A stretch of 64,000 nucleotides of DNA from a virus (IMGVR_UViG_3300029922_000006); one strand, 5' to 3'; counted from the first letter of the stretch, positions 4,310 to 49,039 are shown. The notes: generated by a model not told the origin, from the sequence alone. A program made the numbers and translations.

Positions 4310-4795
4310 TTACTTAACGAGATTGCGGAGTTCAGGAGGCAACGCATTTGTATCGATGTTGACAGTCTTAACTTTAGAAGCTTGGATCTGAGCAACACGA
4401 TTGTTAATAGCTACTTCAACTTCTTTGCGGTCTGTATCAGTAGAGAGTGTAGTGAGCAATGCTCGCATAGCCTTCAACTGAGGATCGCTGGAGCCAATAC
4501 GTGAACCAGGGTTTTTAGCGGAGTAATTAGCCCCACCATTCAGTCGTTTGTCTTTGCGTAACCAGTTAGACTGGAGACCAGATACGTATCCTTTAAGGTC
4601 TGAGTCGCCGCGAGTACTATCAAGTTCGATGGTGCGAGCAGTGAATCCCTCAAACAGGATAGCATTCACTTGACTGCGTAGTTCTCGGTTCATAAGAGCT
4701 CCAACATTGGTTCCTTCAGTAAAGGCAATGTTGTTCTCCTTCAGAACAGAGATGACTGCATTATAGACCGCTTCCTTCTGTGACATCTTGGACAT
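4310..4795 (-). CDS. triplicated unknown protein, copy 1
   Basis: start MSKMSQKEA at 4795 after GAGGAGG; invariant YVSGLQSNWLRKDKRLNG block. Confidence 0.85.
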   Translation of the reverse strand: MSKMSQKEAVYNAVISVLKENNIAFTEGTNVGALMNRELRSQVNAILFEGFTARTIELDSTRGDSDLKGYVSGLQSNWLRKDKRLNGGANYSAKNPGSRIGSSDPQLKAMRALLTTLSTDTDRKEVEVAINNRVAQIQASKVKTVNIDTNALPPELRNLVK

Positions 4796-5831: not shown

Positions 5832-5928
5832 ATTCCTTATAGCTCATTCGGTCTTCAAAGTCTACACCTAATAGGTGCATAAGCTTGATGAGTGATAGAT
5901 ATGTGGACCATCTATTTAGAGTGCTCAC
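5767..5928 (-). CDS. micro-protein with shared helix motif
   Basis: GTG start at 5928 after GGAG; motif LIKLMHLLGV; 3' part of track ORF 5767..6087. Confidence 0.5.
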   Translation of the reverse strand: MSTLNRWSTYLSLIKLMHLLGVDFEDRMSYKEFDYYDATMHKANERKDKGSDS

Positions 5929-6182: not shown

Positions 6183-6512
6183 CTACTTTAATAGAGTCCG
6201 TTCAATAATACTCGCCTCAATCTCAATCACTAACATTCTGTGATAATCGCCATACCAGGGTGGTATAGCTCCACCGCTCTTTAGATCACTCAGAAGAATT
6301 TGTAGATATTTAACATTAAGCTTGCGAAGATCAGTGAGCAAAGCATTAAAGTTTCTCATACCTTCTTCGCTTTGCCCACTATAAGGATGACTGTCAAATA
6401 TACGCTTATAACGAAATCGACGCTTCTGCAACTGATGCTTCTTGCGTGCTTGTTGTCTCTGCATCTTGGATGGCATTTCGTGTCTCCGTGATGCGATTAT
6501 ACGTAGGAACAA
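6183..6512 (-). CDS. basic hypothetical protein
   Basis: K/R-rich N-terminal part; start may be MPSK at 6476. Confidence 0.55.
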   Translation of the reverse strand: MFLRIIASRRHEMPSKMQRQQARKKHQLQKRRFRYKRIFDSHPYSGQSEEGMRNFNALLTDLRKLNVKYLQILLSDLKSGGAIPPWYGDYHRMLVIEIEASIIERTLLK

Positions 6513-11482: not shown

Positions 11483-11628
11483 TATTGCACGTATGAGCGA
11501 CGGTAGGACCAGATGTTTAAGGCGCAGAAAGCGCCTTGGAACAGAGCCCAACCATAAGCACCAGCCATTAGGTCCACAGCACAGAAGAATGCGCACATAG
11601 CGATGACACCAATGCTAAAATACTTCAT
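11482..11628 (-). CDS. 48-aa membrane peptide
   Basis: MKYFSIGVIAMCAFFCAVDLMAGAYGWALFQGAFCALNIWSYRRSYVQ; AAGGAG SD; not in track. Confidence 0.55.
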   Translation of the reverse strand: MKYFSIGVIAMCAFFCAVDLMAGAYGWALFQGAFCALNIWSYRRSYVQ

Positions 11629-11630
11629 AA

Positions 11631-11723
11631 TCACTCCTTAACGTAGTGTTTACCAATCCAGTTAATCAGCTCTTGCTGTCTGCGGTCATATATCTTCAGG
11701 GATTTGATCTTATCGAGCTCCAT
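11631..11723 (-). CDS. 30-aa peptide
   Basis: MELDKIKSLKIYDRRQQELINWIGKHYVKE; ATG directly follows 17-nt element copy 2. Confidence 0.35.
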   Translation of the reverse strand: MELDKIKSLKIYDRRQQELINWIGKHYVKE

Positions 11724-11742
11724 GCGTAGCAGCAGTGTCAGT
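11724..11742 (-). repeat. 17-nt dispersed element, copy 2 (3-nt insertion)
   Basis: ACTGACACTGCTGCTACGC. Confidence 0.7.
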
Positions 11743-11751
11743 GGTGCGGAC

Positions 11752-11795
11752 GGGAATAGAGAATGGGTCATAGTCGGAGGAAGCTATGACCCATT
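11752..11795 (-). terminator. intrinsic terminator
   Basis: 12-bp stem AATGGGTCATAG/CTATGACCCATT, pyrimidine-rich tail, after triplicated copy 2. Confidence 0.7.
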
Positions 11796-11810
11796 GATTG
11801 AGGTTGGATA

Positions 11811-12275
11811 TTACTTCGAGAACTTAGCAGCAAGGTCAGCAGGAAGAGCTGAGAAGTCAACTGTGACTTTCTTAGTCTTAGTTGCATTGATATCGCTAAC
11901 ACGAGCGTCAATGTAAGCTTGAACTTCAGCTTTCTCTTCGTCGGTAGTCAACGTCGAGATCAAAGCGCGCATTGCTTTGAGTTGCGGGTCGCCAGAGCCA
12001 GCGCGTGATCCAGGGTTCTTAGCAACGTAAGCGACATTGCCGTTAAGGCGTTTGTCTTTACGCAACCAATTCGACTGAAGACCAGAGACATACGACTTCA
12101 AGTCGCTGTCAGTGATGTCTGTCTTCTCGAGCTCGATCTTTCCGCTACGGAAACCCTCGAACAAGATAGCGTTCACTTGAACGCGCTCTTCTTTGGTTGG
12201 GCTATAGCTATCAGCTTGGCCGCAAACGTTAGTAACGGCTTGGAATACTGCTTCTTTTTGCGACACTTTAGACAT
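11811..12275 (-). CDS. triplicated unknown protein, copy 2
   Basis: same invariant blocks as copies 1 and 3. Confidence 0.85.
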   Translation of the reverse strand: MSKVSQKEAVFQAVTNVCGQADSYSPTKEERVQVNAILFEGFRSGKIELEKTDITDSDLKSYVSGLQSNWLRKDKRLNGNVAYVAKNPGSRAGSGDPQLKAMRALISTLTTDEEKAEVQAYIDARVSDINATKTKKVTVDFSALPADLAAKFSK

Positions 12276-15239: not shown

Positions 15240-15701
15240 TTACTTAGAGAACTTAGCAGCGAGATCAGCAGGCAGAGCAGAGAAGTCAACAGTCTTGGCG
15301 ACCTTCGTTGCGTTCAGCTCAGCGACTCGTGCATCGATGTAAGCTTGAACTTCAGCTTTCTCTTGATCAGTAGTCAGGGTCGTGATCAGAGCGCGCATCG
15401 CCTTCAGCTGGGGATCAGTCGAACCAGCGCGCGAGCCAGGGTTCTTAGCGGTATACTGAACACCACCGTTCAAGCGCTTGTCCTTGCGAAGCCAGTTGCT
15501 CTGTAAGCCAGACACATAACCCTTCAGGTCGCTATCGCTCTTCTCAGTATCAATCTCGATCTTGCCTGAGCGGAAACCCTCAAAGAGGATCGCATTCACT
15601 TGAGCGCGCTGTTCCTTAGTAGGTGCATACACACCGTCTTGCTCGCCCATGACATTGATGATAGCTGCGAATGCCGCTTCTTTTTGTGACATCTTGCTCA
15701 T
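15240..15701 (-). CDS. triplicated unknown protein, copy 3
   Basis: CTGGGAGG SD; same invariant blocks. Confidence 0.85.
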   Translation of the reverse strand: MSKMSQKEAAFAAIINVMGEQDGVYAPTKEQRAQVNAILFEGFRSGKIEIDTEKSDSDLKGYVSGLQSNWLRKDKRLNGGVQYTAKNPGSRAGSTDPQLKAMRALITTLTTDQEKAEVQAYIDARVAELNATKVAKTVDFSALPADLAAKFSK

Positions 15702-15988
15702 AACATATCCTCCCAGATATTGACTCGGCTTAATTGCCTCATCATGTTACTCATTAGTTTCAGATCGTGCATCATAACTTAGCAAAGTCTTTATCATTGC
15801 CTCGTTATGCTACTCTATAGGTTCGGGAAACTGGCGCCCGCTATCCTCAGCTTAAAAGGGAACCCCTATTTTCAGGTCGGTACCCGCCGTCATTACTCCG
15901 TGTACATAAGCTTTTTCCTATAAAACAGGCCCCGCCACCTTCCAACCCTAATAGGCACAATGTACCACCTGGCCCTTTTCTCTATAGG

Positions 15989-15994
15989 TATAAT
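15989..15994 (+). promoter_or_regulatory. -10 box heading the micro-protein operon
   Basis: TATAAT-N7-ATG(16002), no SD. Confidence 0.5.
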
Positions 15995-16001
15995 TTTTCT
16001 G

Positions 16002-16160
16002 ATGAAACTCACATTTGATTTCCTTAATGATGATCTATATCTGGTCCCCGCCCACAAGCGGAACCTACTAGTACTACTCGCTACACTCAACATCATCAAC
16101 ATCACATTTGAAGACCGCTTCATCGTTAAATGGACCAACCAGGACCAACTTAAATTATGA
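16002..16160 (+). CDS. micro-protein 1 (52 aa)
   Basis: motif LLVLLATLNI; alternative start 15960. Confidence 0.6.
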   Translation: MKLTFDFLNDDLYLVPAHKRNLLVLLATLNIINITFEDRFIVKWTNQDQLKL

Positions 16161-16378
16161 AGAAAAACCACCACGCCACCCTCACCAAGCGCCAATTCGA
16201 GGACTTCGCTCCTTACAAGGACAAAATCCAGAACTCACAGGTCTACCGCTTTCACTCATCAGGCGCACAACTATCTGTCCGCGCCTCCGTCGCGGCCAAC
16301 GGGCTCCACTACATCTCCACAAACATGGCCCCCGCTAGCCTCATAATAATCTTGATTAAACTGGGCCTTCACCTATGA
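16157..16378 (+). CDS. micro-protein 2 (73 aa)
   Basis: ATGA overlap; motif LIIILIKLGL. Confidence 0.65.
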   Translation: MKKNHHATLTKRQFEDFAPYKDKIQNSQVYRFHSSGAQLSVRASVAANGLHYISTNMAPASLIIILIKLGLHL

Positions 16379-16533
16379 ATGACTACATGACTAAACTAAA
16401 ACACTACTCTCAGCTCTACATGTTCCTCAAACAATTGGGCCTATCCGCTCCACTCGTCATGAACTCCAACGACGTCCACAACATTCACTTTGACGGGCAG
16501 ACCCTCTCCTACTCTGGGACCACATCATGGTAG
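16375..16533 (+). CDS. micro-protein 3 (52 aa)
   Basis: ATGA overlap; motif LYMFLKQLGL; not in track. Confidence 0.6.
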   Translation: MNDYMTKLKHYSQLYMFLKQLGLSAPLVMNSNDVHNIHFDGQTLSYSGTTSW

Positions 16534-16781
16534 TAGCCGAACGCCCACTCACCTGTCAAATTGAGATGAACTATGGAAACGTCGACATCTCGTTCGTGGT
16601 TCCTCATCGTGCTCACGAGTCCAAACTTCCGCAGCTACAACAGGCCCTCTACTCTTCGCTCTACCAGCGATTCATCGGGCAAAGACAGACCTCGGCCCGC
16701 CTCGATGAGATGCGATCGATCGTGGACTCGACGGCTCCACTTCTCTATCTACTCCTTCAACTTGGCGTGAGGATAGCATGA
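16527..16781 (+). CDS. micro-protein 4 (84 aa)
   Basis: 7-nt overlap; motif LLYLLLQLGV. Confidence 0.65.
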   Translation: MVVAERPLTCQIEMNYGNVDISFVVPHRAHESKLPQLQQALYSSLYQRFIGQRQTSARLDEMRSIVDSTAPLLYLLLQLGVRIA

Positions 16782-16927
16782 TCCACGTCCTTACTCCTGA
16801 GGAGTTCTCACACTTCGTCGACCTATGGAATATCTTGGGTAAACTCAAGGCCATGCCGTCCTACAGCATCGTCTACCATCGGGACCGATCTGGCCGCTGC
16901 ACCGAAGTACATGTGGAGTTCCCATGA
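16778..16927 (+). CDS. micro-protein 5 (49 aa)
   Basis: ATGA overlap; motif LWNILGKLKA; not in track. Confidence 0.6.
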   Translation: MIHVLTPEEFSHFVDLWNILGKLKAMPSYSIVYHRDRSGRCTEVHVEFP

Positions 16928-17097
16928 GCTACATTCCTTGCTCGTGCGACGACCTCGTCGGAGCACCTATCACCGAGATCAATGTCAAGGCACTTCCGCT
17001 CATCAAGCTCTTGCATAAACTTCTCCACGGGAACAGGCCTCACCGTCTTGACCCGTACTGGGAGCCGGACGACTACTATGACACAGGTGTATCGTGA
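16924..17097 (+). CDS. micro-protein 6 (57 aa)
   Basis: ATGA overlap; motif LIKLLHKLLH; not in track. Confidence 0.6.
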   Translation: MSYIPCSCDDLVGAPITEINVKALPLIKLLHKLLHGNRPHRLDPYWEPDDYYDTGVS

Positions 17098-17240
17098 GAC
17101 TTCACGGCATCTCTATAGAGTTCAAAGACTCCGAGTATCGAGGAGTCAGTACTCTTCACTGCACGCGTGCTCTTCCACGGCTTCTGAACCTAATGTTTCA
17201 GCTGAACCTCATCAAGGGCTTCTCGGTGACCGAGCTATGA
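17094..17240 (+). CDS. micro-protein 7 (48 aa)
   Basis: GTGA overlap; motif LLNLMFQLNL; not in track. Confidence 0.55.
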   Translation: MRLHGISIEFKDSEYRGVSTLHCTRALPRLLNLMFQLNLIKGFSVTEL

Positions 17241-17443
17241 GCTTGTTTCAGAAGTGGAGCCACTACAGGTATATTGGCGAGACCGACGATGAGTTCCGGA
17301 CCCGTATCATCGGGGATGCGAACCAGCGCTTCAACATGATCATCGTCTTAGCCAAGCTCGGTATTCAGGAAGCTAGAGATCAGCTGAGCAAGGCCGGAGT
17401 TGAGTGGGCGAGCGACAGATGGTTTAACGACGGCGGACGATAG
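17237..17443 (+). CDS. micro-protein 8 (68 aa)
   Basis: ATGA overlap; motif MIIVLAKLGI; 3' part of track ORF 16982..17443. Confidence 0.65.
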   Translation: MSLFQKWSHYRYIGETDDEFRTRIIGDANQRFNMIIVLAKLGIQEARDQLSKAGVEWASDRWFNDGGR

Positions 17444-17456
17444 CCCAAAGTTCTAG

Positions 17457-17462
17457 TATAAT
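17457..17462 (+). promoter_or_regulatory. -10 box, leaderless-type
   Basis: TATAAT-N6-ATG(17469). Confidence 0.55.
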
Positions 17463-17468
17463 AAAGAT

Positions 17469-17762
17469 ATGGAATACTTGGCACTCTCAGCAAACGGTCA
17501 GTGGTCTTTACATAAGAACACTAACGACCACGATGCAGACTCGGTTGCTCCGCACACAGCGGACACACGACCGTATGAAGTATTTCAAGGACACTCGATG
17601 ACGGGTCAACTCGCAGTTGACCACGGCAGTCAGGGTACTCTCCACGATTTCGGCGGCGGTAGCCGACCGAAAGCAGAACACACCAAGCAAGCACGCATCG
17701 GACAACCGAATCACCCGGTAGACTCGATGTACAGTGATCGTCACCCGGGCGACGGCGAATAG
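17469..17762 (+). CDS. His/Asp/Gly-rich disordered protein
   Basis: 97 aa; N-terminal LALSANGQWSLHK then low-complexity polar sequence. Confidence 0.65.
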   Translation: MEYLALSANGQWSLHKNTNDHDADSVAPHTADTRPYEVFQGHSMTGQLAVDHGSQGTLHDFGGGSRPKAEHTKQARIGQPNHPVDSMYSDRHPGDGE

Positions 17763-17768
17763 TATAAT
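17763..17768 (+). promoter_or_regulatory. -10 box, leaderless-type
   Basis: TATAAT-N6-ATG(17775). Confidence 0.55.
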
Positions 17769-17774
17769 CGCCGC

Positions 17775-18023
17775 ATGGCGATTGTTCCAAAGACATTTGA
17801 TCAGATAATGGGCGAGAGCATTGCTTCTTTGAGCAAGGCACTTGAGGTAGAGATGTTCTATGGACATCCACGCCCTGAGGAAAAGCTTTGCGGTTTGCTC
17901 AGCAAGCTTGGTATTAAGAGTGCTCGCAGCTTCAGCATGTTTAAGTTTGAAGGACTTGACACAATTTTGAAGTCTGTTACGTTTGATAGCACTCAGCTCA
18001 AACTATGGAAAGATATTAAGTAA
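17775..18023 (+). CDS. micro-protein 9 (82 aa)
   Basis: motif LCGLLSKLGI followed by KSAR. Confidence 0.65.
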   Translation: MAIVPKTFDQIMGESIASLSKALEVEMFYGHPRPEEKLCGLLSKLGIKSARSFSMFKFEGLDTILKSVTFDSTQLKLWKDIK

Positions 18024-18095
18024 CTTAGTTCTAACTCATTATATTGCATCTGGCAAGGGGCCCCGTCGAAGCGCGGGCGCTTAGGAGAAATACGA

Positions 18096-18314
18096 ATGCT
18101 GACAAATATGTTCGATAGCACTTCCACTCTGAAGCTGTTTCGTATTCTGTATCAACTGAACATCATCACTGATTTTTATCATAAGAAACATGCATTTTCG
18201 GCTCTGACTAAAATGATTAACCCGCCAGAGCCGAAAGAGAACTGGATTAGATTCGCCAGCGTAAGTCTTCAGATAGATTATATTGAGCTAATACCGGTGA
18301 CCAGACGTGGATGA
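18096..18314 (+). CDS. micro-protein 10 (72 aa)
   Basis: AGGAG SD; motif LFRILYQLNI. Confidence 0.65.
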   Translation: MLTNMFDSTSTLKLFRILYQLNIITDFYHKKHAFSALTKMINPPEPKENWIRFASVSLQIDYIELIPVTRRG

Positions 18315-18414
18315 TTACGTCGATCGACGCAAGTCAACCAAGCTAAAGATCTTACTCGCGAAGCTTGGAATCAAGAGCGCACGCCCTGCTGTTTCAAGCT
18401 TATCAGGTTACTAA
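18307..18414 (+). CDS. micro-protein 11 (35 aa)
   Basis: GTG start overlapping previous stop; motif LKILLAKLGI followed by KSAR; not in track. Confidence 0.5.
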   Translation: MDDYVDRRKSTKLKILLAKLGIKSARPAVSSLSGY

Positions 18415-18453
18415 TTGAGTTGAAATGTGTAAGCTGCAAAAGAATCAGCTTGT

Positions 18454-18735
18454 CTACTTCTTGGCACGCTGAGACGACGTTAAGTCTTGAATATGGCGTT
18501 CAAGGGCCATCGACGCTTCAAAGTAAGCCTCGGCCTTTTCATAAGGTGTTAAACACCCTTTAGTAGAAGGATCATAGGATACAAGAGTGAGCTGGTAGCG
18601 AACTGGCCCACCGTCTTCTGAGAGTTGTATTCTCTTTGTAACGGTCTCAATAGTACCTATGACTCTAAGACGCCTCAATAGCATATAGACATGATGCACT
18701 GAAGTAACTTGATCGGACGTCAATCTGTTGAACAT
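18454..18735 (-). CDS. micro-protein 12 (93 aa)
   Basis: motif VYMLLRRLRV. Confidence 0.6.
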   Translation of the reverse strand: MFNRLTSDQVTSVHHVYMLLRRLRVIGTIETVTKRIQLSEDGGPVRYQLTLVSYDPSTKGCLTPYEKAEAYFEASMALERHIQDLTSSQRAKK

Positions 18736-18905
18736 GCATCCTCTGCAATCATCTTGCCAAGTCGAGCCATATAGTCAGTCCAGGTTGCTGCCGCAGGTTC
18801 AAATGATGAGCGAATGCCAAGGTCACGAAGAAAATACAATAGTCGGAAATGTAGTTCCAACTTCTGTAGATCTTGTATCTTCTGGTACCGCCCAATCCGC
18901 GTCAT
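18720..18905 (-). CDS. micro-protein 13 (61 aa)
   Basis: TATAAC-N7-ATG; motif LLYFLRDLGI. Confidence 0.6.
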   Translation of the reverse strand: MTRIGRYQKIQDLQKLELHFRLLYFLRDLGIRSSFEPAAATWTDYMARLGKMIAEDACSTD

Positions 18906-18913
18906 GTACCTAG

Positions 18914-19045
18914 TTATACTAGCTTCGACTTATGTGTGTATAGCAATTTGGCAAGAAAGAACTTTAGGTCAATAGCATAGTACAGATCGATTGCCTCTTT
19001 ATTGTTCTTGAAACGAATAACAACAGGGCGCTTTTGATCTTTCAT
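18914..19045 (-). CDS. micro-protein 14 (43 aa)
   Basis: AAGGAAG SD; motif LKFFLAKLLY; not in track. Confidence 0.55.
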   Translation of the reverse strand: MKDQKRPVVIRFKNNKEAIDLYYAIDLKFFLAKLLYTHKSKLV

Positions 19046-19074
19046 AAGTACTTCCTTTGATGAGGACCTAGTAC

Positions 19075-19350
19075 TTATATTTTATCAGGTTCTTCGGAAA
19101 GCATCTCTTCTATAAGCTTATCGCCTAGCTTTTGTTCGTATAGGTCTTTCAGCAGCTTATCGTATGTAGATGTTCTTAGGTTGTAGCCGTACTTCTGTTC
19201 CCGGCGCATTTTGTTCTTAGGTCCGCCTAGTGTGCCCTGAAGATAAGAGATATCGTCACAGCTTACGAAACGTAGTTCAGATTTGATCTTGTCAACAACT
19301 AGTTGTTCTCTTCTAATGTCTTCTGTGTCGAACGCCATACCATCTCCCAA
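19075..19350 (-). CDS. hypothetical protein
   Basis: 91-aa ORF; C-terminal LIEEML helix. Confidence 0.6.
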   Translation of the reverse strand: MGDGMAFDTEDIRREQLVVDKIKSELRFVSCDDISYLQGTLGGPKNKMRREQKYGYNLRTSTYDKLLKDLYEQKLGDKLIEEMLSEEPDKI

Positions 19351-19357
19351 GACACTC

Positions 19358-19603
19358 TCACTTGATCTTCAATAAACGATACATAAAAGTAATGAGATGA
19401 TACTTCGCCTGATCTTGCTTATGTCGAAGGAATAAGTCAGTTACTACTGCTTGTCCCATCGATGCTGCTCGATGTCCAGGGGTTCCTGCTCGTCCACAAG
19501 AGCATGATGTGTTATGACATCCAAAGCCATTTTTGCTCTTTGTGCTGGTGACGGTGGGTTCGGGTACAGAAACTCCGGGAGACACATTGCTTTGAACGGA
19601 CAT
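19358..19603 (-). CDS. micro-protein 15 (start uncertain)
   Basis: C-terminal LITFMYRLLKI; 5' part overlaps 19444..19725 so true start likely downstream. Confidence 0.4.
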   Translation of the reverse strand: MSVQSNVSPGVSVPEPTVTSTKSKNGFGCHNTSCSCGRAGTPGHRAASMGQAVVTDLFLRHKQDQAKYHLITFMYRLLKIK

Positions 19604-19725
19604 ACTTTACACCTTTGCGATTCCATGCACTTCCCGTCTAGGGAAGCAATCTGTTCTAAAATTGTTGAGTCATTTTTACTTAGTGCCATCTGGCTCTCCA
19701 AGCAAATCATCAACAGCTTTATCAA
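19444..19725 (-). CDS. Cys-cluster protein B
   Basis: ILEQIASLDGKC...CKVCPF...C; probable start MALSK near 19689. Confidence 0.6.
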   Translation of the reverse strand: MIKLLMICLESQMALSKNDSTILEQIASLDGKCMESQRCKVCPFKAMCLPEFLYPNPPSPAQRAKMALDVITHHALVDEQEPLDIEQHRWDKQ

Positions 19726-19939
19726 TCAGTATACGTGAGGCGACTTCTTTATATTTAGCGTCGGCCTGCTCTTCAGATAGATCTTCTACCCCAAGGGCTT
19801 CCACACATGACAAGAATGAGCCGTTTGATTTCTTTTTGAGCTTAGACAACGGACAGGACTTACAGATGGACGGTTTGGCCCACAGGGTACAAGAGCCCTC
19901 GGAATCTACGATTTTCTTCAATATGTCCATGCTATCCAT
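19676..19939 (-). CDS. Cys-cluster protein A
   Basis: ILKKIVDSEGSC...CKSCPL...C; TATAAT (minus) at 19964-69. Confidence 0.65.
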   Translation of the reverse strand: MDSMDILKKIVDSEGSCTLWAKPSICKSCPLSKLKKKSNGSFLSCVEALGVEDLSEEQADAKYKEVASRILIDKAVDDLLGEPDGTK

Positions 19940-19997: not shown

Positions 19998-20003
19998 GTG
20001 TCA

Positions 20004-20495
20004 ATGGAAGAGACAAAGTATTGTCAGTACTGCGATAAGAATAAACCACTAGATGCATTTCAAAAGAGTCGTGCTAAGTGCAGACCTTGTAGAACTCTTG
20101 AGACCAAGAAGTGGAAACAAGAGAATTCTGACCAGCATTATCTATATCAAAAAGAGTATAAGGCAAAACGATATAAGTCGGATCTCAACTTTAAGATTAA
20201 GGTCATCTTAAGATCTCGTGTTCGTAAATTTCTCAAGAACAATTGGAAGAGTGGGTCGTCAGTCGACATGCTCGGTTGCTCTGTAGAAGATTTTAAGTTA
20301 CATATAGAGTCAAAGTGGCAAGAAGGAATGTCGTGGGATAACTGGTCAAAACTTGGCTGGCATCTAGACCACATACTTCCTCTAGACTCATTCGATCTTT
20401 CTAAACCAGAAGATATGGCTAAGGCATGCCACTTCACGAATCTCCAACCGTTATGGGCTCTAGAGAATTGTATTAAGTCAAACAAGGTAGAATAA
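20004..20495 (+). CDS. HNH homing endonuclease
   Basis: N-terminal CxxC...CxxC; WHLDHILP...CHFTNLQPLW..EN; probable ATG start 20004. Confidence 0.85.
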   Translation: MEETKYCQYCDKNKPLDAFQKSRAKCRPCRTLETKKWKQENSDQHYLYQKEYKAKRYKSDLNFKIKVILRSRVRKFLKNNWKSGSSVDMLGCSVEDFKLHIESKWQEGMSWDNWSKLGWHLDHILPLDSFDLSKPEDMAKACHFTNLQPLWALENCIKSNKVE

Positions 20496-21385: not shown

Positions 21386-22027
21386 ATGATAAACTATAGC
21401 GATAAAATGAAAATTGCTAGACTATCTAATCCACTGAAAATGGATACAGTTTATCGTTGTTTTTGTGATACCTGCGGTAAAGATAGGGGCTATAAGCGCA
21501 AAGTGGATGCTAATAGGTCATGTTCTTCATGCGTTGCAAAGCAGCGCGTTATTTCAGAGGAAACTAAAGTTAGAATTAGCGATAGTATTAAAAAGTTGCC
21601 ACCAATTTCAAAAGAATCTAGACTTAAGGCTGGATTAAAATTAAAGGGCAGAAAAGTCTCCTTAGAGACTAAGAAAAAATTAAGTTGCATAAAGAGATCT
21701 ATACCTATAGATCAATTTGATGATTTTTTAAACCCTATTAATAAAAGAGATAGGGATTTAATATATAAGAGTGGTCTATCTAAGTCAATTTACGAACGAG
21801 ATAACTTCAGTTGTCAAGTTTGCTATAAAAATGGTAAACTCGTTGCTCACCATAAGAATGGTTTTGACCTATTTCCTCAAGAGCGCTTTGATGTTAACAA
21901 CATAATAACTTTATGCAATAATTGTCATCAAAAGTTTCATAAAAAATTTGGTTATAAAAACAACACCAAAGATCAATTTCAATTATTTTTAAGTGAGGTT
22001 GTAAGTGCCAACAGCAGTCTCACGTAA
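21386..22027 (+). CDS. HNH homing endonuclease
   Basis: RDNFSCQVC...AHH...NIITLCNNCHQKFH; AT-rich relative to neighbours. Confidence 0.85.
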   Translation: MINYSDKMKIARLSNPLKMDTVYRCFCDTCGKDRGYKRKVDANRSCSSCVAKQRVISEETKVRISDSIKKLPPISKESRLKAGLKLKGRKVSLETKKKLSCIKRSIPIDQFDDFLNPINKRDRDLIYKSGLSKSIYERDNFSCQVCYKNGKLVAHHKNGFDLFPQERFDVNNIITLCNNCHQKFHKKFGYKNNTKDQFQLFLSEVVSANSSLT

Positions 22028-23534: not shown

Positions 23535-24171
23535 CATATATCTTGAACTTGAACGCTTAAAAGTTACTCTACGCAACAAAGGTATGGACGAAGATTTCGT
23601 TAATACTGTAGTTGATAAAGCTGAAGCTGAGATAAATGATCGGCTATCGGAACAGATGTCTAATGCCATGGAGAATGCCATCCAGTCTGGTATGCAGAAG
23701 AAGTCTGCCGACTTCATTAATGACTTACGTCCTGCTCCTGGTGCATTTCAATTGGAGACTGCTTCGGGAAATACTGACTTCTCAGAACCACCCATGCCCA
23801 TGCTCGATAGGCTTCTTGCCTCTGGTGCTAAGCCAATGAAGGATGGATCTGGTATTTATAAGATCATCCCAGTTGGTGCTCCTAGTAAGACGCCTAGACC
23901 TTCTGTAGCCAGTAATATCTTTGAGGCTCAGAAAGCAATAGCGGCCGAAAGGTATGAAACGGCATTAGCTCAGTATAATAAGGTGAAGCCAAAGGGATCC
24001 AAGGTAGAATTTAGGACCGTAACCAGTAAGCAGAATAGAGCAACACAGTGGATCCTACCAGCTAAAGATAAGGACTTCACTGAGGATCTCAAGTCAATTA
24101 ATGCGCTCTTAGATGAGTCTCATGATGACATAGTAATGAGTATAATAAGAGAATATGAGGAAAACTTCTAG
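23527..24171 (+). CDS. putative virion morphogenesis / neck protein
   Basis: synteny between neck and tail-completion genes. Confidence 0.45.
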   Translation: MVNIYLELERLKVTLRNKGMDEDFVNTVVDKAEAEINDRLSEQMSNAMENAIQSGMQKKSADFINDLRPAPGAFQLETASGNTDFSEPPMPMLDRLLASGAKPMKDGSGIYKIIPVGAPSKTPRPSVASNIFEAQKAIAAERYETALAQYNKVKPKGSKVEFRTVTSKQNRATQWILPAKDKDFTEDLKSINALLDESHDDIVMSIIREYEENF

Positions 24172-24746
24172 TGAAGACATGTAGCAAATGTAAGCAAATT
24201 AAAGTTAAAGAAGAATTTGGTAAACATAAGAATGGGAAAAATGGATTAGATTCGAGATGTAAAACATGTTTAACTCAATACAGAAAGAGCATGGTTGCAA
24301 ACTCTAATGTTAGAAATAAAGCATGGTATGAGGCAAACAAGGATCGAAAATCCTTATATAACAAAATCTGGAAAGAAGCAAACTTAGAACATCTTAGTGA
24401 TTATAACAGCGTATACCAAACAAATAGATATAAAACTGACATAGAGTACAAACTAAAAGTAAGTTTAAGATCTAGGCTAAATAAGGCAATTAGTGGTAAT
24501 TATAAGTCTGGTTCTGCTGTAGAGGATTTAGGGTGCACAATTGACGAATTAAAAGTTCATCTCGAGGTACAATTTAAGTCAGGCATGAGTTGGGATAACC
24601 ATGGTAGATTTGGTTGGCACATTGACCATATAGATCCGCTTACCGCATTTGACTTAACTGATCCAGTTCAAGTAAAGACAGCATGCAATTTTAAGAATCT
24701 TCAACCCTTGTGGTGGAAAGAAAACATCTTGAAAGGTGGAGCTTAA
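24171..24746 (+). CDS. HNH homing endonuclease
   Basis: CSKC...CKTC; WHIDHIDP...CNFKNLQPLW..EN; same family as 20004; AT-rich. Confidence 0.85.
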   Translation: MKTCSKCKQIKVKEEFGKHKNGKNGLDSRCKTCLTQYRKSMVANSNVRNKAWYEANKDRKSLYNKIWKEANLEHLSDYNSVYQTNRYKTDIEYKLKVSLRSRLNKAISGNYKSGSAVEDLGCTIDELKVHLEVQFKSGMSWDNHGRFGWHIDHIDPLTAFDLTDPVQVKTACNFKNLQPLWWKENILKGGA

Positions 24747-25808: not shown

Positions 25809-25871
25809 TTCTAGCTAAGCATCTATGTTATAATTGGGTGAGATACATACTTGACTCAGGAGACTTAACAC

Positions 25872-28112
25872 ATGGCAATTAATGTAAGCTTTAATGGTGC
25901 TACCATTTACAAACCAGGTGCTTACTCACAAGTAGAGATTGATCTCGGCGGAGGCTTCCCGTTAAGCCCTACCGGAATCATCGCTCTCTTTGGAGAAGCA
26001 GACGCGGGTGCTCCTGGCTCCGCAGAACCGAATCTTGCAAACAACGTTTTCGGTCCAGATCAATACAACCAAATTTTGGCTAAGTACGGTTCTGGTAACA
26101 TCGTTGATGCATGTAACTTCTTGTTTGCTCCGGGCGCTGATGGCGCAATTCCGGGTGGCGCACAAGCTGTGTACATCTACAAGACAAACGCTTCTACTCA
26201 AGCAACGCTTGATCCGATTGCTGCTGGCGCAACTCCTTTCGGAATGTTGCAGTCACAAGCATACGGCGTCGGAGGTAACCTTGTTACTTTCAAAAACACT
26301 ATCACTCCAGAAGGACAAGCTGTTCTGACGAGCGCTGTTATCACTTTCCCTGTTGTTGTTACAACCGGAACAAATGATACTCTCGCTTACTCGTTGAACG
26401 GTGGTGCTCCTGCTACTGCGACTGTTGCTGCTGACTCTTACGCTTCTGCTGCTGCTCTTGCTACGGCATTGAACACTGCACTCGGCGCAAACACTATGGT
26501 TGCTGCTGCTGGAACTGTAGCTAACACAATCACTTTGACTCAAGCAATTGCTTCGAACCCACAACGTAATGGTTACGGTCGTTCGATGCAGCTTGGTTCA
26601 GGAAACATCAGCACAAGCATCGGACTTTCGTCTAACGCTTTCGCTGCTGCTGCTTCTGAGCCTATGGCTACTCTGGTTGTTGCAAACCCTGTTTCGACTC
26701 TTACTGAGAGCGCAACTGTTGGTGGAGACATTCCTTTGTCGATCGGTCGTTCTGCAACTGGTGGCGTAACTGCTGCTTCAGTTACTATCGGAGCTACTGC
26801 GATCACGCTGACTCAAACTGGTGCTACTCCTGCTTCGTACAGCCTCCCAATCGCTAACTTCCCTTCTATTCAGTCTGTTGCTTCTTTCATCAACACTCTG
26901 TCAGGATGGAGTGCTTCAGTAGAGAGCGTTCAAATCGGTCTTCAACCGATCACTGTTCTCGACCAAGTTTCAGCTGTTGGCGCTTTGTACAGCGGCGCAA
27001 CTGCTCAACAACCTGCTCGCATCAAAATGGATGCAAGTGAAGTTGTTGGCTTCTTCGCTGCAAGCACACAAGTTAACCTGGTTCCTTCGGTTTCTGCTTC
27101 GCAAACTGCAGTAAAAACTGTTGGTCTTCCAGATCAACAAGGCGTTCCAAACGCTCTCTACCTCACTGGTGGAGTTCTTGGAGCAACTGCTTCTGCTGAC
27201 ATCGTTAACGCATTGAGCAAGTTTGAGAAATTCCGCGTTAACGCGGTTGTTCCTTTGTTCTCGCGTGATGCTTCACAAGACATCCTTGATGAAGTTACTG
27301 ACCCGTCTTCGACTTACACTATTGCTGCTGTTCACCAAGCTGTGAAAACTCACTGCTCGTTGATGGCGACTACTAAGAAAAAGTCTGAGCGTCAAGGTTA
27401 CTTGTCGATGAAGGACACGTACGCAAACTGTAAATCTGAGATCGCTACTACTGCTGACGCACGTCAACAGATGGTCATCCAAGATATCCGTCAAGCTGAT
27501 TCTGCTGGTAACATCCAGTGGTTCCAACCTTGGGCTGGAGCTTGTTTGCTCGCTGGTGCTCGCGGCGGTTCGCCTGTCGGTAACCCGATGACATTCAAAT
27601 ATTTCAACATGTCTGGTATCCGCCAGACTGGTCAATTGCTCTCGACTGCTGAGCAGAACATTGTTATCGACTTCGATCCAGATGTCGCATACGATGACGC
27701 TATCCAAAATGGCGTTACGTTCTGGGAAGCACCACAAACTGGTGGATTCCGCCTCGTTGTCGATAACACGACCTACGGTAAAGATGGAAACTGGGTATAC
27801 AACCGTGCCCACGTTCTCTACGCTTCCGATGTCCTTGCTTATGACTTCCGTAACCAATTAGAGAACATCTACATTGGTCTGAAGAACACTGTGAACGCTG
27901 TCGAAGTTCAATCGACTTGCGCAGCTATCTTGGCTACTTACCTGGCACAAGGAATCACGGTTTCTACTTCTGACGCGAAAAACGGCTACAAAGCCCTTGT
28001 AGTTCAGATCAACGGAAACACGATCAATGTATCGGTAACTGTTAAGCTTGTTGAAGGTATCGACTTTATCTTGGCTAACATCACTCTGCAAAGAGCTAGT
28101 TCGTCAACATAA
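25872..28112 (+). CDS. contractile tail sheath protein
   Basis: MAINVSFNGATIYKPGAYS N-terminus, IIALFGEA..G, sheath-type C-terminus; extended -10 TGT-TATAAT 25826-34. Confidence 0.9.
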   Translation: MAINVSFNGATIYKPGAYSQVEIDLGGGFPLSPTGIIALFGEADAGAPGSAEPNLANNVFGPDQYNQILAKYGSGNIVDACNFLFAPGADGAIPGGAQAVYIYKTNASTQATLDPIAAGATPFGMLQSQAYGVGGNLVTFKNTITPEGQAVLTSAVITFPVVVTTGTNDTLAYSLNGGAPATATVAADSYASAAALATALNTALGANTMVAAAGTVANTITLTQAIASNPQRNGYGRSMQLGSGNISTSIGLSSNAFAAAASEPMATLVVANPVSTLTESATVGGDIPLSIGRSATGGVTAASVTIGATAITLTQTGATPASYSLPIANFPSIQSVASFINTLSGWSASVESVQIGLQPITVLDQVSAVGALYSGATAQQPARIKMDASEVVGFFAASTQVNLVPSVSASQTAVKTVGLPDQQGVPNALYLTGGVLGATASADIVNALSKFEKFRVNAVVPLFSRDASQDILDEVTDPSSTYTIAAVHQAVKTHCSLMATTKKKSERQGYLSMKDTYANCKSEIATTADARQQMVIQDIRQADSAGNIQWFQPWAGACLLAGARGGSPVGNPMTFKYFNMSGIRQTGQLLSTAEQNIVIDFDPDVAYDDAIQNGVTFWEAPQTGGFRLVVDNTTYGKDGNWVYNRAHVLYASDVLAYDFRNQLENIYIGLKNTVNAVEVQSTCAAILATYLAQGITVSTSDAKNGYKALVVQINGNTINVSVTVKLVEGIDFILANITLQRASSST

Positions 28113-28170: not shown

Positions 28171-28267
28171 CTTAACTTAGTTTGGTGTATAGTATTCTCA
28201 TGGGTTGCATAGTGCAGCCTCAAAAAATGGATGGTACTGGTCAACCACAAGACCAAAAGGAAAAAGT

Positions 28268-28831
28268 ATGGCAGCAAAGATGCCCTCATTTATCACAGGT
28301 GCGAATGCGAAGATTAAAGTAGGCGGTAAGACGTTTGCTTATGCTTCGGATGTCTCTTATCAAGTATCGGTAGACACCATTCCGATCGAAACTATGGGTC
28401 GTTACGAAGCAGTGTCGAACGAACCGGTTAACTACTCTGTTGCAGGAGAGTTAAGCGTTGTTCGTTATACCGCTATCGCAAACCAAAACGGTATGCCCGG
28501 AACGAACTCGACTGGTAACGGTCTTGGTGAAGTTAACTACACTACTGGCGGAAACGGCAGTTTTGAAATTAACCCAGGTAACATTTTGCTTTCGCAAACA
28601 TGGGACCTCGCCGTATTCCAAAAAACACAGACTGGCGCAACGGCTGGTGGCGGAACTGCTCAGGTTACTGATGCTGTTCAGTTCATCACGATCGCTGACT
28701 GCCGTTTCAACCGTAAGAGCGCAGCGTTGAACAAACGCGGTATCTTGGTTGATCGTCTTTCGTTCGTTGGAATTCTTGCTAGTGACGACAGCTTCGAAGC
28801 GTCGAACTCTGGCGATACAGACTTGTCGTAA
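28268..28831 (+). CDS. tail tube protein 1
   Basis: start MAAKMPSFITGANAKI at 28268 (AAGG SD); tube-like beta pattern; follows sheath. Confidence 0.8.
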   Translation: MAAKMPSFITGANAKIKVGGKTFAYASDVSYQVSVDTIPIETMGRYEAVSNEPVNYSVAGELSVVRYTAIANQNGMPGTNSTGNGLGEVNYTTGGNGSFEINPGNILLSQTWDLAVFQKTQTGATAGGGTAQVTDAVQFITIADCRFNRKSAALNKRGILVDRLSFVGILASDDSFEASNSGDTDLS

Positions 28832-28849
28832 TTTTAAGGAGCAGTACGG

Positions 28850-29533
28850 ATGGCCGCAGTTCGCCCATTCTTCATTACAGGTGCTAACGCAAAGGTTGTC
28901 TTGAACGGCAAGACTATGGCCTTCTGTACTGATCTCTCTTACTCTGTATCTATTCTCACTCAAACACCCAAAATTCTTGGGATGTACGAAGGCTCGTCAG
29001 TCGAGCCTCTCGGTTACTCTGTGACTGGCTCCTTCACAGTAATTCGCTACGCTAAAGATGCTCACTCGAACATTGGTGCAGTAGCTCCTGGCTTGATCAC
29101 TCCTAACGATGCTGGTAACGGTATTGGTAACTGGGGCGCAGCTTGGGGCGGCGGACTTGGAAGCTTCCTCGCTGCTAACGGCGTAGGAAATGATGGTCGT
29201 CCAAACGAGAACATGGACCCAAGCAAGCTTCAAAACGGTACTACTTTTGACATTCAAGTTTATCAGAAGATTCCAGCTCCTCAAAACAGCTCTTCAACTG
29301 ATCAACAGCTCGGTAATGATGTCACTAATGTTCTTAATGCAATTACCGGCGATTCAACACAGACTGGAAACATCATTGGTGTGGCCAATCTTCGTTCTTG
29401 CAGAATCACTCAAGCTGACTTTAGTATAACTAAAAAAGGCGCAGCGATTCAGCGTTTTAACTTTGTTGCTCTGTACGCAGACGAAGATAGCTTCGTAGCT
29501 AACTTCTCAGGTACTGGTCAACAAAATACTTGA
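28850..29533 (+). CDS. tail tube protein 2 (paralogue)
   Basis: FITGANAK..., G.YE...EP..YSV.GS..V.RY shared with tube 1. Confidence 0.75.
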   Translation: MAAVRPFFITGANAKVVLNGKTMAFCTDLSYSVSILTQTPKILGMYEGSSVEPLGYSVTGSFTVIRYAKDAHSNIGAVAPGLITPNDAGNGIGNWGAAWGGGLGSFLAANGVGNDGRPNENMDPSKLQNGTTFDIQVYQKIPAPQNSSSTDQQLGNDVTNVLNAITGDSTQTGNIIGVANLRSCRITQADFSITKKGAAIQRFNFVALYADEDSFVANFSGTGQQNT

Positions 29534-29540
29534 GGTTTAG

Positions 29541-30167
29541 ATGTCAGGTTTTAATAACCAACCAGGCTTAGTACAAGGACTCGCAGATAATCTAGCACAG
29601 AATATCTCTGGGATCATTTCTACAAAGCAGACAGCTAAATACGCTTCAGGTGCTCGTACTGTTCTGAAGATCAACGGAAAGCCATGCGGTTTCGCATTCG
29701 GCGTATCGTGGAGAATCAACACTACAGTATCTGAGATCATGACTATCGATGATTACATGCCGGCAGAACTAGTTCCTCAGCGTATCAGCGTCGAAGGTAC
29801 TATCAGTGCTTTGCATATTCCTGGACAAGGAGTTGGTGTACAGCTCTGGCAACCAGACGCTCTTAACTTCCTGTTCCAACAGTATATCACTATTGAAGTG
29901 CGTGACTCTGCAACAGATCAACTCTTATTCTTCACTGCACGGGCTATGATCACTAGCAGAGCAGAAGAACTTCGTGTTGACTCACTTGCCAATGTTACAC
30001 TCAGTTTTAAAGCAATCGGCTTCCAAGACGAGCGCGTTCCTCAGCAAGCTGACGACGTTAATGGAGCTCAGCAAACGACTAGTGCGTTTGTTCTGCCTAA
30101 CGTTCCTTCACGCCTTGACGAGATCCCGTTTAATCCGACTTCTGGTGTTCCTACCCTTACTGCATAA
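29541..30167 (+). CDS. tail tube-like protein 3
   Basis: SGARTVLKING...GFAFGVSW...ELVP..ISVEGTISAL, diverged tube pattern. Confidence 0.7.
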   Translation: MSGFNNQPGLVQGLADNLAQNISGIISTKQTAKYASGARTVLKINGKPCGFAFGVSWRINTTVSEIMTIDDYMPAELVPQRISVEGTISALHIPGQGVGVQLWQPDALNFLFQQYITIEVRDSATDQLLFFTARAMITSRAEELRVDSLANVTLSFKAIGFQDERVPQQADDVNGAQQTTSAFVLPNVPSRLDEIPFNPTSGVPTLTA

Positions 30168-39410: not shown

Positions 39411-42400
39411 ATGGCTATTCAAATTAAGAGCTTTAATCAAATTCTTGGAGACATGATCCGCACGATCTTAGCGGAAACTCCTCTCAATGACTTAAACGCA
39501 GGCTCAGTATTACTTACTTTGCTTGAAGCTGCAGCTGCTAACGACTTCGAGAACAATGCTGCGATCCTCAACGTTTTAGAGCTTCTTAATATCGATGCCG
39601 TACAGAACAGTGACCTTGATGCCCGTGCCGGTGACTATGGTTTAACCCGTTATGCTGCCATTAAGGCTTCTGGTAACGTCACCATCACAAACACGAACAT
39701 CACTAAGATCTCGACTGGCCTCTACGTAATTAAGCCAGCCCCTATTTCTGGACAGACTACTCTCTTCGTAAACAGCACGACTGGCTGGGCCCCATCTGGA
39801 ACCTTGTATATCGGCCGTGGTACTCAGTCTTTTGAAGGTCCGATCCCTTATTCTTCTATCACTCAGTACGCTACGTATTCTCAGATCAATCTGGGCTCTG
39901 CGTTGCAACGCGACCATCTGATCTCGGATGTCGTTGTAGACTCCCAGGGTGAGCCAGATCGCATCATCGCTGCAGGTACGGTAGTTAGCATCCCTGCCAA
40001 CAACCAGAACCCTGAGATCCAATACGTCACATTAAGAGACGCTGTTATCCCGGCTGGTGAGCAGAACGTTACCAACGTTCAAGTTATCGCTCTCGTTGCA
40101 GGATCACAAGGCAATGCAGGAATCAACACTATTACTGCTTTTGATACTCCGCCATTCGCTGGTGCAGCTGTATCTAACACCAATGCTTTCACAGACGGTG
40201 CTGACATTGAGACAGACGTCCAACTCCGTAACCGTATCCAGAGCTATAGCACTACGCTTGCTCGCGGTACTGCTGCTTCGATCATCGACGCAGTAATCGG
40301 TGTTTCGGATTCGACAGATAACAAGCAAGTTGCTTCAGCAGTTATCACTGAGCCAACCGCTGTTAACGAACCTTCTATCCTTTATATCGATGACGGTACC
40401 GGCTTCGAGCCCTCGTACACTGGTCAATCGGTTGATACTCTGTTAAAGAATGCTGACGGAACCGAAGAGTTCTTGCAGCTCTCTAACTACCCACTTCCAC
40501 GTCCTCAAGTTGTCAACACTGAGGCGGGTCCATTCACAGTTACTGTTGGTTCAATCCTTCGTGTAATTGTCGATGGCACTGAGGAAGACATTCAGTTCTT
40601 GGCTACAGACTTTGCTAACATCTCGGCAGCAACTATCTCTGAGATCATCATTGCTATCAACGCCCGCGCTACATCTTTTAGCGCTCGCTTTACTAACGAT
40701 GGAGAAAACATTCTGATCTATCCTCAAGCATACGATGCTGAGTTGATCCAGGTTTCTCCACAACGCTCGACTGATTCAACTTTGCTTTACATTAACAACC
40801 TGTTGAAGTTTCCTACTAACCAGTATAGCTACATCTCGTTGTTTAAAAACTCTACTCGTATCTACGAAAAAGAGAAGAGCGCTTCGGTTGAGACTGCGGC
40901 ATTCGCTAACTGGAACATCACTGGTCCAGGCGATATCATTATCTCTGTTGACGGTACTCCGGCACAGGATCGTACATTCGCATTGAGTGACTTTGCTGGA
41001 GCTTCTAGCTTCGCGTCTCTCACTCTTGCACAATACGTTGCTGCCTTCAATACTAAATTTGCAGGTCTTACCGCTACAGCAACTGCTTCACAGACTATGT
41101 TAATCACGTCGAACCAACAAGGTTCAGCGTCTTCAATCTCTGTAAGCGGTGGTACTTATCTTGATAAGTGGTTCACTAGCGGCGAAATCAGCTCTACTGG
41201 ACAAAGCTCACAGTTCCAATTGAACCGTCAGACTGGTAACCTCCAAGTAGTCGACATCAACGCAGGAGACACAGTTACTGCTGGTATCACGGATGCTAAA
41301 GGCTTCGTGCTGTCGTCTACAACTACATCTGGTAACTACAATGTATCGAGCGATACAAACGGTCGTCCATCTGAGATGGTCGTTGTAGCTGACTCTACAT
41401 ACACTACACAACGAGCTCTTACGCTGTTGGTTGGTGCTACAATCTCTATCACGAATCCTTCAGGAACAGACATGCGAATCATGTCTTCAACTCTTGCAGC
41501 ATTCGAGGCGCTTCTGCCAGGTGACTTCATCTACTTGACTCCACGCACAACTGGCTGGGTAAATTCAGCTAACGCTGGACTTTTTAAGATTCATGCTAAA
41601 GGTCCTCACCTAACTGCTGGAACTGACTCATTTGTTGATGTTCAAAACATCAACGTGGTTCCTCAGTCGAACGTCTCTATCTTAGATTCTTTGGACATCT
41701 CTGCTTTCACAACTGATGGATTCCCTCAGATTTGGCGCGGCGTCTACGTTGACAATCCTCCTGTTGCTTCAATCACAAGCATCATCGATTCGTTGAACAC
41801 AGACCTCATTAACGTTATTGCTAGCGTTTATAACTCTAGTGCTATCAAGTTAACATCGACTACTGAGAACGGTGGAAGCATTGCTATTCCCGTAGCGGTG
41901 TCGAATGCATCATTGCTCTTTGCAAGTACACCTACCGCTGAGTTAGGTAACCCACCTCTCATCGCTTACTCTGTACCGACAAAAGATCTCGTATCTAATT
42001 TCAGGATCACAACTCCTACAAACCAGAACGTCTTCTTGAACCGTCACACGTATACAGACGTTAAACGTCAGTTACTTGCTAACTCGGTTCCTGATCAACC
42101 AGACTATACTGGTACTTACAGTGAGATTGTTGATGCTAACCTCGATGCTACGACTATGGACTTTGATGACTACTTGTCATTCACTGGCGGCAACAACCGC
42201 GGGCAGTTCCGTACTGTCGCTGCGTTCCCTACTTCTGGAAACGTAGGTACTCAAGAGGGTACAGCTCGTACACAACTTGACCATATCATTGGTGATGAGC
42301 TTCAAGTTGTAACTCCAATCCAATTTACTACAGACGACTCAATCGTTGTTGTAATGGATCAGAATTCAGCTACCGAAACTGTTGACATTCAAATGGCTCG

Positions 42401-49021: not shown

Positions 49022-49033
49022 GTCCGATTGGAG

Positions 49034-49039
49034 TATAAT
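49034..49039 (+). promoter_or_regulatory. -10 box, leaderless-type
   Basis: TATAAT-N6-ATG(49046). Confidence 0.55.

Follow-up and report, generated by a model that had tools for sequence, protein, structure and literature searches.

A stretch of viral DNA of 64,000 nucleotides (IMGVR_UViG_3300029922_000006; hereafter the window, meaning the stretch at its full length) carries, between positions 16002 and 19603, a dense array of small open reading frames (ORFs), many of which share a ten-residue helix motif. Judged from sequence comparison, the array consists of clade-specific, modular micro-proteins with fast turnover, whose variable remainders (hereafter payloads) are freely exchanged around the constant helix. 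In a subset, the payload is a maintained copy of a segment of one of the high-copy virion proteins of the same phage, taken from where those proteins are most conserved. As to their function, we tentatively favor the reading that these tagged mimics compete for whatever recognizes the conserved virion segments, most likely host sensors.

By its gene content, the window is part of a large uncultured myovirus: it encodes a tail sheath (25872-28112), a Baseplate_J protein (39411-46490) and a NUDIX-domain protein. No nucleotide match to the window was found among the deposited phage records searched; of the cultured phages, Myxococcus phage Mx1 comes closest, its sheath being 34% identical. Dozens of related contigs are present in IMG/VR, including three complete genomes of 172-177 kb, of which two have direct terminal repeats. 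A 100% identical strain occurs in five other metagenome assemblies, in one of them as a 175-kb contig; samples that contain this phage are JGI 3300037279, 3300037434, 3300030020 and 3300037404 and ENA ERZ27249971. The small ORFs of the array look coding. The codon-usage score is highest in the annotated frame for 17 of the 19 ORFs when all six frames are compared, and most array ORFs were predicted independently by JGI/ENA gene callers on other contigs. A tRNA array or RNA genes beneath spurious ORFs, a possibility prompted by the locally raised GC, was rejected, as ARAGORN found no tRNA and Rfam no family.

The first-pass annotation of this DNA had listed 15 motif bearers among 17 consecutive ORFs. 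When its pattern is written as a regular expression (the loose motif), 15 of the 17 match, whereas 5000 residue shuffles average 0.39 and never exceed 3; the strict form, [LIVMFYW]xx[LIVMFYW][LM]xxL[GN][LIVA], is matched by 10 of the 17, with a shuffle mean of 0.07. Under both definitions, the motif is enriched over shuffled ORFs. A six-frame scan of the window yields 16 strict matches, 10 of which lie within 15960-19610, each in the frame and on the strand of a small ORF. The list of 15 stands for the greater part: ten instances are strong (Table 1), and two variants, VYMLLRRLRV and LKFFLAKLLY, are conserved in orthologues. The orthologues of variant members have G, N, D, K, R or H at position 9. 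Two other instances, LWNILGKLKA and LIKLLHKLLH, reach background-level scores with a matrix built from the relatives, and the last one, LITFMYRLLK, belongs to an ORF (19358-19603) that is probably outside the motif family because it is largely an alternative frame of a conserved gene (19444-19725). The further copies claimed for the left arm of the window are reduced to those at 5863-5892 and 6312-6341, which score well by the matrix; no other left-arm copy does.

Dozens of related uncultured myoviruses have the motif in their syntenic arrays as well, with the consensus LLxLLxKLG[ILV], often followed by KSA. Among the relatives, position 7 is K in 46%, and K-S-A follows the motif in 23-32%. 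In Mx1, seven six-frame motif matches occur in 170 kb, none of them forming a family, and the motif array is, by these comparisons, restricted to one clade. Across 135 motif instances, third codon positions carry about 0 bits of information and all six Leu codons are used, which means that the peptide, and not the DNA or RNA, is under selection; a repeat or regulatory site at the nucleic-acid level is ruled out on the same ground. The copies at 18343 and 17886 differ from each other at synonymous sites. In the one close genome pair, the ratio of non-synonymous to synonymous change (pN/pS) is 0.19, with three synonymous and no non-synonymous changes in the motif. Small as this sample is, it points to conservation of the helix and away from the neutral ratio near 1 that would have spoken against the family. 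Five further array-bearing contigs are all 100% identical to the window and thus offer zero polymorphism for such a ratio (dN/dS).

Outside the motif, the proteins have little in common. After masking of the motif, 206 distinct motif ORFs from the window and its relatives fall into 174 BLAST clusters, 158 of which are singletons, in line with the first-pass view of a constant helix joined to a variable remainder. The motif may be N-terminal, central, or 2-5 residues from the C-terminus, its location ranging from residue 1 to the last 12 residues. This freedom bears on the idea that the helix is a loading signal, which would have the proteins packaged in the capsid or tail and ejected when the next host is infected, in the manner of the capsid targeting sequence of T4. 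A short common tag on variable small proteins fits such a signal, and some payloads resemble the N-terminal region of the capsid protein, which may face the prohead interior; against it, the tag ranges from N-terminal to extreme C-terminal positions and no protease-site pattern was identified, and we regard loading as very unlikely. The array was likewise compared with precursors of ribosomally synthesized and post-translationally modified peptides: the motif position is not fixed, and no enzyme family of such pathways was found among the window proteins scanned, which cover part of the window.

Two native helices were considered as ancestors of the motif and rejected, MSGLLKQLKKG of the capsid protein and ILNVLELLNI of the Baseplate_J protein, as their matrix scores are unremarkable. 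An alignment with L019:2300 was suggestive of an origin (p ~0.002) and fails multiple testing. The helix ILNVLELLNI fits the strict pattern, lies at 39564-39593 (+), residues 52-61, and stands about 30 residues beyond the N-terminal segment that is copied by the ORF at 17775-18023. It may be the source of the constant module, a suggestion without statistical support.

The first-pass annotation regarded the micro-proteins as otherwise unrelated, which is wrong for a subset, in that payloads copy conserved segments of the capsid, sheath, tube and Baseplate_J proteins. The capsid gene of this phage lies outside the window, and capsid proteins of relatives were used as the reference. In the ORF at 17775-18023, residues 59-81 (17949-18017) resemble capsid-protein residues 54-76, with 65% identity over 20 amino acids (E 8e-6); by profile, the match to capsid scores 14.9 bits, the best decoy reaching 7.2. 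Residues 1-19 of the same ORF (17775-17831) resemble the N-terminus of the Baseplate_J protein, with a position-locked score of 38 against a null maximum of 29 and a local alignment score of 45, above all 2000 shuffles. In the ORF at 17237-17443 (micro-ORF 8), GETDDEFRTRI reproduces the Baseplate_J signature ETDxxLRxRI. The regular expression E[TS]D..[LFM].{1,2}RI, run over 2.5 million six-frame residues, finds only Baseplate_J proteins and five motif micro-ORFs, and the subfamily of micro-ORF 8 is also present in relatives L006, L007, L041 and L056. Micro-ORF 6 shows a borderline likeness to capsid-protein residues 227-246 (E 0.009, in a search against five capsid proteins only).

The relatives provide further cases. 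Three orthologous micro-proteins open with MAINxxFNGxxIxxPGxY, which is the sheath N-terminus, and close with the motif; the residues invariant in 28 sheaths (M1, A2, I3, F7, N8, G9, I12, P15, G16 and Y18) are also invariant in these mimics. When the mimics are compared with the sheath gene, codon positions 1 and 2 agree at 13-15 of 22 sites and position 3 at 5-8 of 22, a near-random level which indicates that the likeness is kept at the peptide level and is not a fresh duplication. The DNA upstream of the mimics agrees with that of the sheath gene at 9-14 of 45 sites, that is, it is unrelated. Two micro-proteins (in L002 and L024) carry the motif followed by a tube-like N-terminal region (about residues 24-62), and a cluster of at least eight carries the motif followed by capsid residues ~230-273, with best E values of 9e-7 and 4e-6 against the five capsid proteins. 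As a control, BLAST gave 10 real matches and 1 reversed-decoy match at 28 bits or more, and the profile search placed 10 real ORFs above the best decoy (7.2 bits). The parents recovered by these two screens are capsid, sheath and tube only, to which the targeted tests add Baseplate_J. Each mimic type occurs in some genomes only. In addition, two motif proteins, L007:7345-7644 (-) and G004 11517-11984 (-), carry a poly-glycine payload (VxLxGGGGGG), and that of L007 resembles a 334-aa protein of G004 that matches the PHROGs family 'tail fiber assembly'.

What the motif looks like in three dimensions was predicted for two families. The AlphaFold2 model of the 61-aa family (18720-18905; predicted local distance difference test, pLDDT, 90.9) is a helical hairpin of two long helices; the motif covers the end of helix 1 together with the L-G-I turn, and helix 2 begins with KSA. 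The model of the 93-aa family (18454-18735; pLDDT 87.6) has the order beta-alpha-beta-beta-alpha, and the motif ends helix 1; fold searches with it gave no significant PDB match (Foldseek E >0.8; VIA-align wide Z <=4.5). On these models, the motif belongs to a module some 14 residues long, predicted to run from the final helical turns through a Gly/Asn cap into the beginning of the following element, and to be used in different folds. Both models agree with the earlier proposal that G or N at position 9 is the helix C-cap.

The same proposal likened the motif to the first helix of HicA-type folds, and this part did not hold up. A superficial likeness to LIKLLEKxGF (HicA) and AxxLGxS (helix-turn-helix) could be taken to mean that the motif is the first helix of a HicA-like toxin or of a helix-turn-helix DNA-binding protein. 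Neither HicA (PF07927) nor a helix-turn-helix family was matched by any of 20 window proteins searched at E up to 10, and the 145 family members searched at E up to 0.05 showed no HicA either; Pfam and PHROGs, run on all window ORFs and on these members, gave no shared family. No helix-turn-helix family is common to the members scanned, the sole winged-helix match being FtsK_gamma in 1 of the 145 (E 0.04). There is no HicB antitoxin neighbor, as the genes of 15240-19939 have no Pfam match at a meaningful score. Several members stop 2-5 residues past the motif; among them, the ORFs at 16157-16378 and 16527-16781 end 2-3 residues past it, and 18720-18905 has only two helices, none of which suits a helix-turn-helix. 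The two modeled folds, a two-helix hairpin and a beta-alpha-beta-beta-alpha unit, differ from each other. HicA itself has an alpha-beta-beta-beta-alpha fold that resembles a double-stranded RNA-binding domain; no HicA chain was among the matches listed for the beta-alpha-beta-beta-alpha model. This explanation is largely refuted, and we give it hardly any credence.

How could such proteins act? In the reading that we favor, which we consider quite possible but far from secure, the payload would occupy the recognizer of its virion segment, most likely a host pattern-recognition sensor of virion proteins; the constant helix would serve all members alike, through a shared partner or through self-association; and an arms race would drive the turnover of the arrays. 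Among the roles put forward in the first-pass annotation, that of a decoy gains some indirect support from what the payloads are. Host sensors are preferred because the arrays are patchy and fast-changing, like accessory genes in an arms race, and the virion proteins are strongly conserved. They are also preferred because bacterial Avs receptors are reported to bind conserved elements of this sort, namely the capsid A-domain interface and the tail-tube beta-hairpin (PMC13581612). A bolder form of the same thought, which we hold to be somewhat more doubtful, sees the array as a combinatorial 'epitope-display' library, in which conserved virion segments presented on a common helix handle would mislead or neutralize host receptors for capsid, sheath, tube and baseplate. 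It would amount to counter-immunity by protein-level self-mimicry, renewed by payload swaps around the constant module.

Several points weigh against competition with host sensors. A virion parent is detectable in only about 5-10% of the payloads, and in the window for only two ORFs clearly. A trigger-like decoy could activate a sensor instead of blocking it. Both models show the motif helix packed against other parts of the same protein, so that it could be purely structural. Finally, the profile of the 61-aa family, which found 66 cluster representatives among 1.84 billion proteins, finds besides small orthologues a single protein, P0060, of 973 aa and with unrelated helical repeats; it holds at least six copies of LLV[EK]LGIKA[AV]EN, a near-identical helix corner, which means that motif-like sequence can arise for structural reasons alone.

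These last observations are the strength of a structural explanation, in which the motif is a favorable helix end, cap and turn that was handed down by an ancestral small gene, has spread through recombination and has no shared partner. The micro-proteins would then be ordinary accessory or host-takeover proteins that work independently, and the pieces resembling virion proteins would be by-products of illegitimate recombination, frequent in a genome with many homing endonucleases. The intramolecular packing in two different folds, the same corner in an unrelated repeat protein, the majority of payloads having no detectable parent, and the HNH and endonuclease VII-type genes within the structural module are all consistent with it. 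It does not readily account for about 200 otherwise unrelated proteins, in one clade only, that retain K7, L8, G9 and often KSA, nor for mimic segments that keep the invariant residues of the parent after synonymous saturation; moreover, the parents are conserved major virion proteins only and not random genes. On balance, we consider this explanation rather unlikely.

The nature of the copied pieces could also speak for a role in assembly. Micro-proteins would block the acceptor sites on the subunits of sheath, tube, capsid and baseplate and so prevent premature polymerization, and the helix would serve a common release factor. What is copied are N-terminal arms and conserved segments that look like interfaces; copies of N-termini remain N-terminal; and the GTATAAT box that precedes array ORFs is also found ahead of the sheath gene and other structural genes. 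Yet GTATAAT starts stand ahead of replication genes too, the virion proteins are highly conserved whereas the mimics are patchy and their arrays turn over fast, and Mx1 has homologous virion proteins but no mimics, which together make regulation of assembly unlikely. The payload and turnover evidence would serve equally well an interference between phages, in which dominant-negative fragments disrupt assembly in co-infecting relatives but do not affect the phage's own proteins. Satellites of the SaPI1 type do redirect capsid assembly with a scaffold-mimicking protein. The copied segments, however, are nearly invariant across the clade, and there is no obvious way in which the phage's own proteins could be spared; we think this distinctly improbable.

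Literature text searches found no published description of the motif or of tagged virion mimics, and in a catalogue of 268 anti-defense proteins the word 'capsid' is absent and the mimics described are DNA mimics (10.1101/2025.06.06.658234). Tagged mimics of virion segments therefore appear to be new relative to the literature searched. If the mimicry is functional, it would represent a new class of phage accessory system, made of short tagged copies of a phage's own most conserved virion segments, the kind of parts recognized by bacterial Avs/STAND receptors (PMC13581612). It would offer an experimental handle on the virion epitopes that matter in immunity or assembly, pre-selected by the phage, and would show that micro-protein genes can be generated rapidly by joining payloads to one constant module.

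The layout of the array and of its surroundings is given in Table 1. Eight plus-strand ORFs (15960/16002-17443), each joined to the next by an ATGA/GTGA overlap, form a relay; beyond it come four more ORFs on the same strand and a block of minus-strand genes (18454-19939). For seven of the eight relay ORFs there is no homologue, not even where the flanking genes of a relative reach 60-80% identity, and micro-ORF 4 (16527-16781) matches itself only among 5.8 billion proteins. The GC content of the relay is above that of its surroundings, and at third codon positions it is 0.60-0.72 (16157-17443 region) against 0.39-0.53 in the minus-strand genes. The high GC of these orphans suggests a different origin or expression class.

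Table 1. Features of the array, its neighbors and the virion parents, with positions in the window (aa, amino acids).
Feature	Position	Strand	Description
GTATAAT box	15988-15994	+	7 nt upstream of ATG 16002
Micro-ORF 1	16002-16160	+	52 aa (66 aa from start 15960); strong motif LLVLLATLNI 16065-16094; relatives without homologue
Micro-ORF 2	16157-16378	+	73 aa; strong motif LIIILIKLGL 16340-16369, two residues before C-terminus; ATGA overlap with micro-ORF 1
Micro-ORF 3	16375-16533	+	52 aa; strong motif LYMFLKQLGL 16414-16443, near N-terminus; matrix score 16.4
Micro-ORF 4	16527-16781	+	84 aa; strong motif LLYLLLQLGV 16740-16769, C-terminal; orphan
Micro-ORF 5	16778-16927	+	49 aa; loose motif LWNILGKLKA 16823-16852; doubtful member
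Micro-ORF 6	16924-17097	+	57 aa; loose motif LIKLLHKLLH 16999-17028
Micro-ORF 7	17094-17240	+	48 aa; GTG start; strong motif LLNLMFQLNL 17181-17210; matrix score 17.7
Micro-ORF 8	17237-17443	+	68 aa; GETDDEFRTRI 17276-17308; strong motif MIIVLAKLGI 17336-17365
Motif-less array member	17469-17762	+	97 aa; conserved in 15 loci; own GTATAAT box 17456-17462; absent from Mx1
Double-mimic micro-ORF	17775-18023	+	82 aa; strong motif LCGLLSKLGIKSAR 17886-17927, between two virion-like segments
Micro-ORF	18096-18314	+	72 aa; strong motif LFRILYQLNI 18135-18164; position 9 D or K in orthologues
Micro-ORF	18307-18414	+	35 aa; GTG start; strong motif LKILLAKLGIKSAR 18343-18384; matrix score 28.3
Conserved 93-aa protein	18454-18735	-	variant motif VYMLLRRLRV 18661-18690
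Conserved 61-aa protein	18720-18905	-	strong, canonical motif LLYFLRDLGI 18813-18842
Conserved 43-aa protein	18914-19045	-	variant motif LKFFLAKLLY 18938-18967; LLY kept in orthologues; 27 loci
Claimed ORF with LITFMYRLLK	19358-19603	-	mostly alternative frame of conserved gene 19444-19725; at most 33 codons could be real
Two overlapping small conserved proteins	19444-19725, 19676-19939	-	52-81% identity; 38 and 51 loci
153-aa family	4310-4795, 11811-12275, 15240-15701	-	three copies in the window
Tail sheath parent	25872-28112	+	N-terminal 18-22 residues copied in relatives L007, L026, L049
Three tube-like paralogues	28205-28831, 28850-29533, 29541-30167	+	~210 aa; directly after sheath gene
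Baseplate_J parent protein	39411-46490	+	2359 aa; PF04865 E 1.6e-15; signature ETDVQLRNRI, residues 267-276

The GTATAAT box at 15988-15994 is probably the -10 element of a leaderless transcript that opens the relay. Similar boxes at 17456-17462, 17762-17768 and 49033-49039 lie 6-7 nt ahead of the ATGs at 17469, 17775 and 49046, and this spacing suggests leaderless mRNAs. Further (a/t)GTATAAT boxes occur in the window at 25828, 30184 and 55841; some boxes stand ~30-45 nt upstream of genes with an AGGAG Shine-Dalgarno site, the sheath gene included. In relative G001, GTATAAT-N5-8-ATG precedes about 19 real gene starts, among them those of DNA polymerase III alpha, a thymidylate-kinase-like and a lysozyme-like gene. 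A general scan for sigma-70 promoters and terminators gave counts not above those of shuffled sequence.

Several clade-specific genes lie beside or between the arrays. The 153-aa family has 3-4 copies in G001 and G004, interleaved with motif arrays; it is absent from Mx1, and in the ESM Atlas it matches viral hypothetical clusters only. The two overlapping proteins at 19444-19725 and 19676-19939 each have a C-x6-7-C-x2-C cluster, are likewise absent from Mx1, and may be paralogous metal-binding regulators. Together with the 97-aa protein at 17469, this family and these Cys-rich proteins (19444-19939) are candidate partners. For the double-mimic ORF at 17775-18023, the ESM Atlas offered no usable match, and its own model is poor (pLDDT 0.47).

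Within the structural module, the three paralogues at 28205-30167 are probably tube or tube-like proteins, by their position and by weak PHROGs matches. Free-standing homing-endonuclease genes of the HNH and endonuclease VII types are located there at 21386-22027 and 24171-24746, and the ORF at 19998-20495 (165 aa) is HNH-like by eye, with no above-threshold Pfam match. Nine relatives (L021, L026, L028, L033, L034, L043, L046, L049 and L051) have sheaths of ~940-950 aa, against the usual ~735-746, which implies an inserted domain of ~200 residues.

Among known systems, the first helix of HicA (PF07927) has a similar hydrophobic pattern ending in Gly and a hydrophobic residue; unlike HicA, the motif proteins have no profile match, HicB neighbor or common fold. 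The T4 proteins IPI-III, which are small, polymorphic and encoded in a hyperplastic region, share a short constant peptide, the capsid targeting sequence. This sequence is strictly N-terminal and cleaved by the prohead protease, whereas the phage motif, a helix end capped by Gly, may lie anywhere. In the donor-strand complementation of chaperone-usher systems such as PapD/FimC, a surrogate N-terminal arm fills the acceptor site of the next subunit. By analogy, a micro-protein could act as a surrogate arm and fill such a site, but it has no chaperone fold, and its arrays are patchy and fast-evolving. SaPI1 CpmB and P4 Sid are small satellite proteins that copy a helix of an assembly protein and compete at the capsid-protein interface; each is a single gene aimed at the helper, whereas this phage copies its own proteins, in many variants and with a common tag. 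Eukaryotic microProteins (LITTLE ZIPPER, Id proteins) are small, derive from an interaction segment and are thought to compete for the partners of the parent. The phage micro-proteins resemble them in being very small and, as far as sequence derivation goes, in stemming from a segment of a larger protein, which was found for 17775-18023, 17237-17443 and about 15 ORFs of relatives. Unlike microProteins, they are phage-encoded, occur by the tens per genome in arrays, carry a constant helix, and have virion proteins and not transcription factors as parents.

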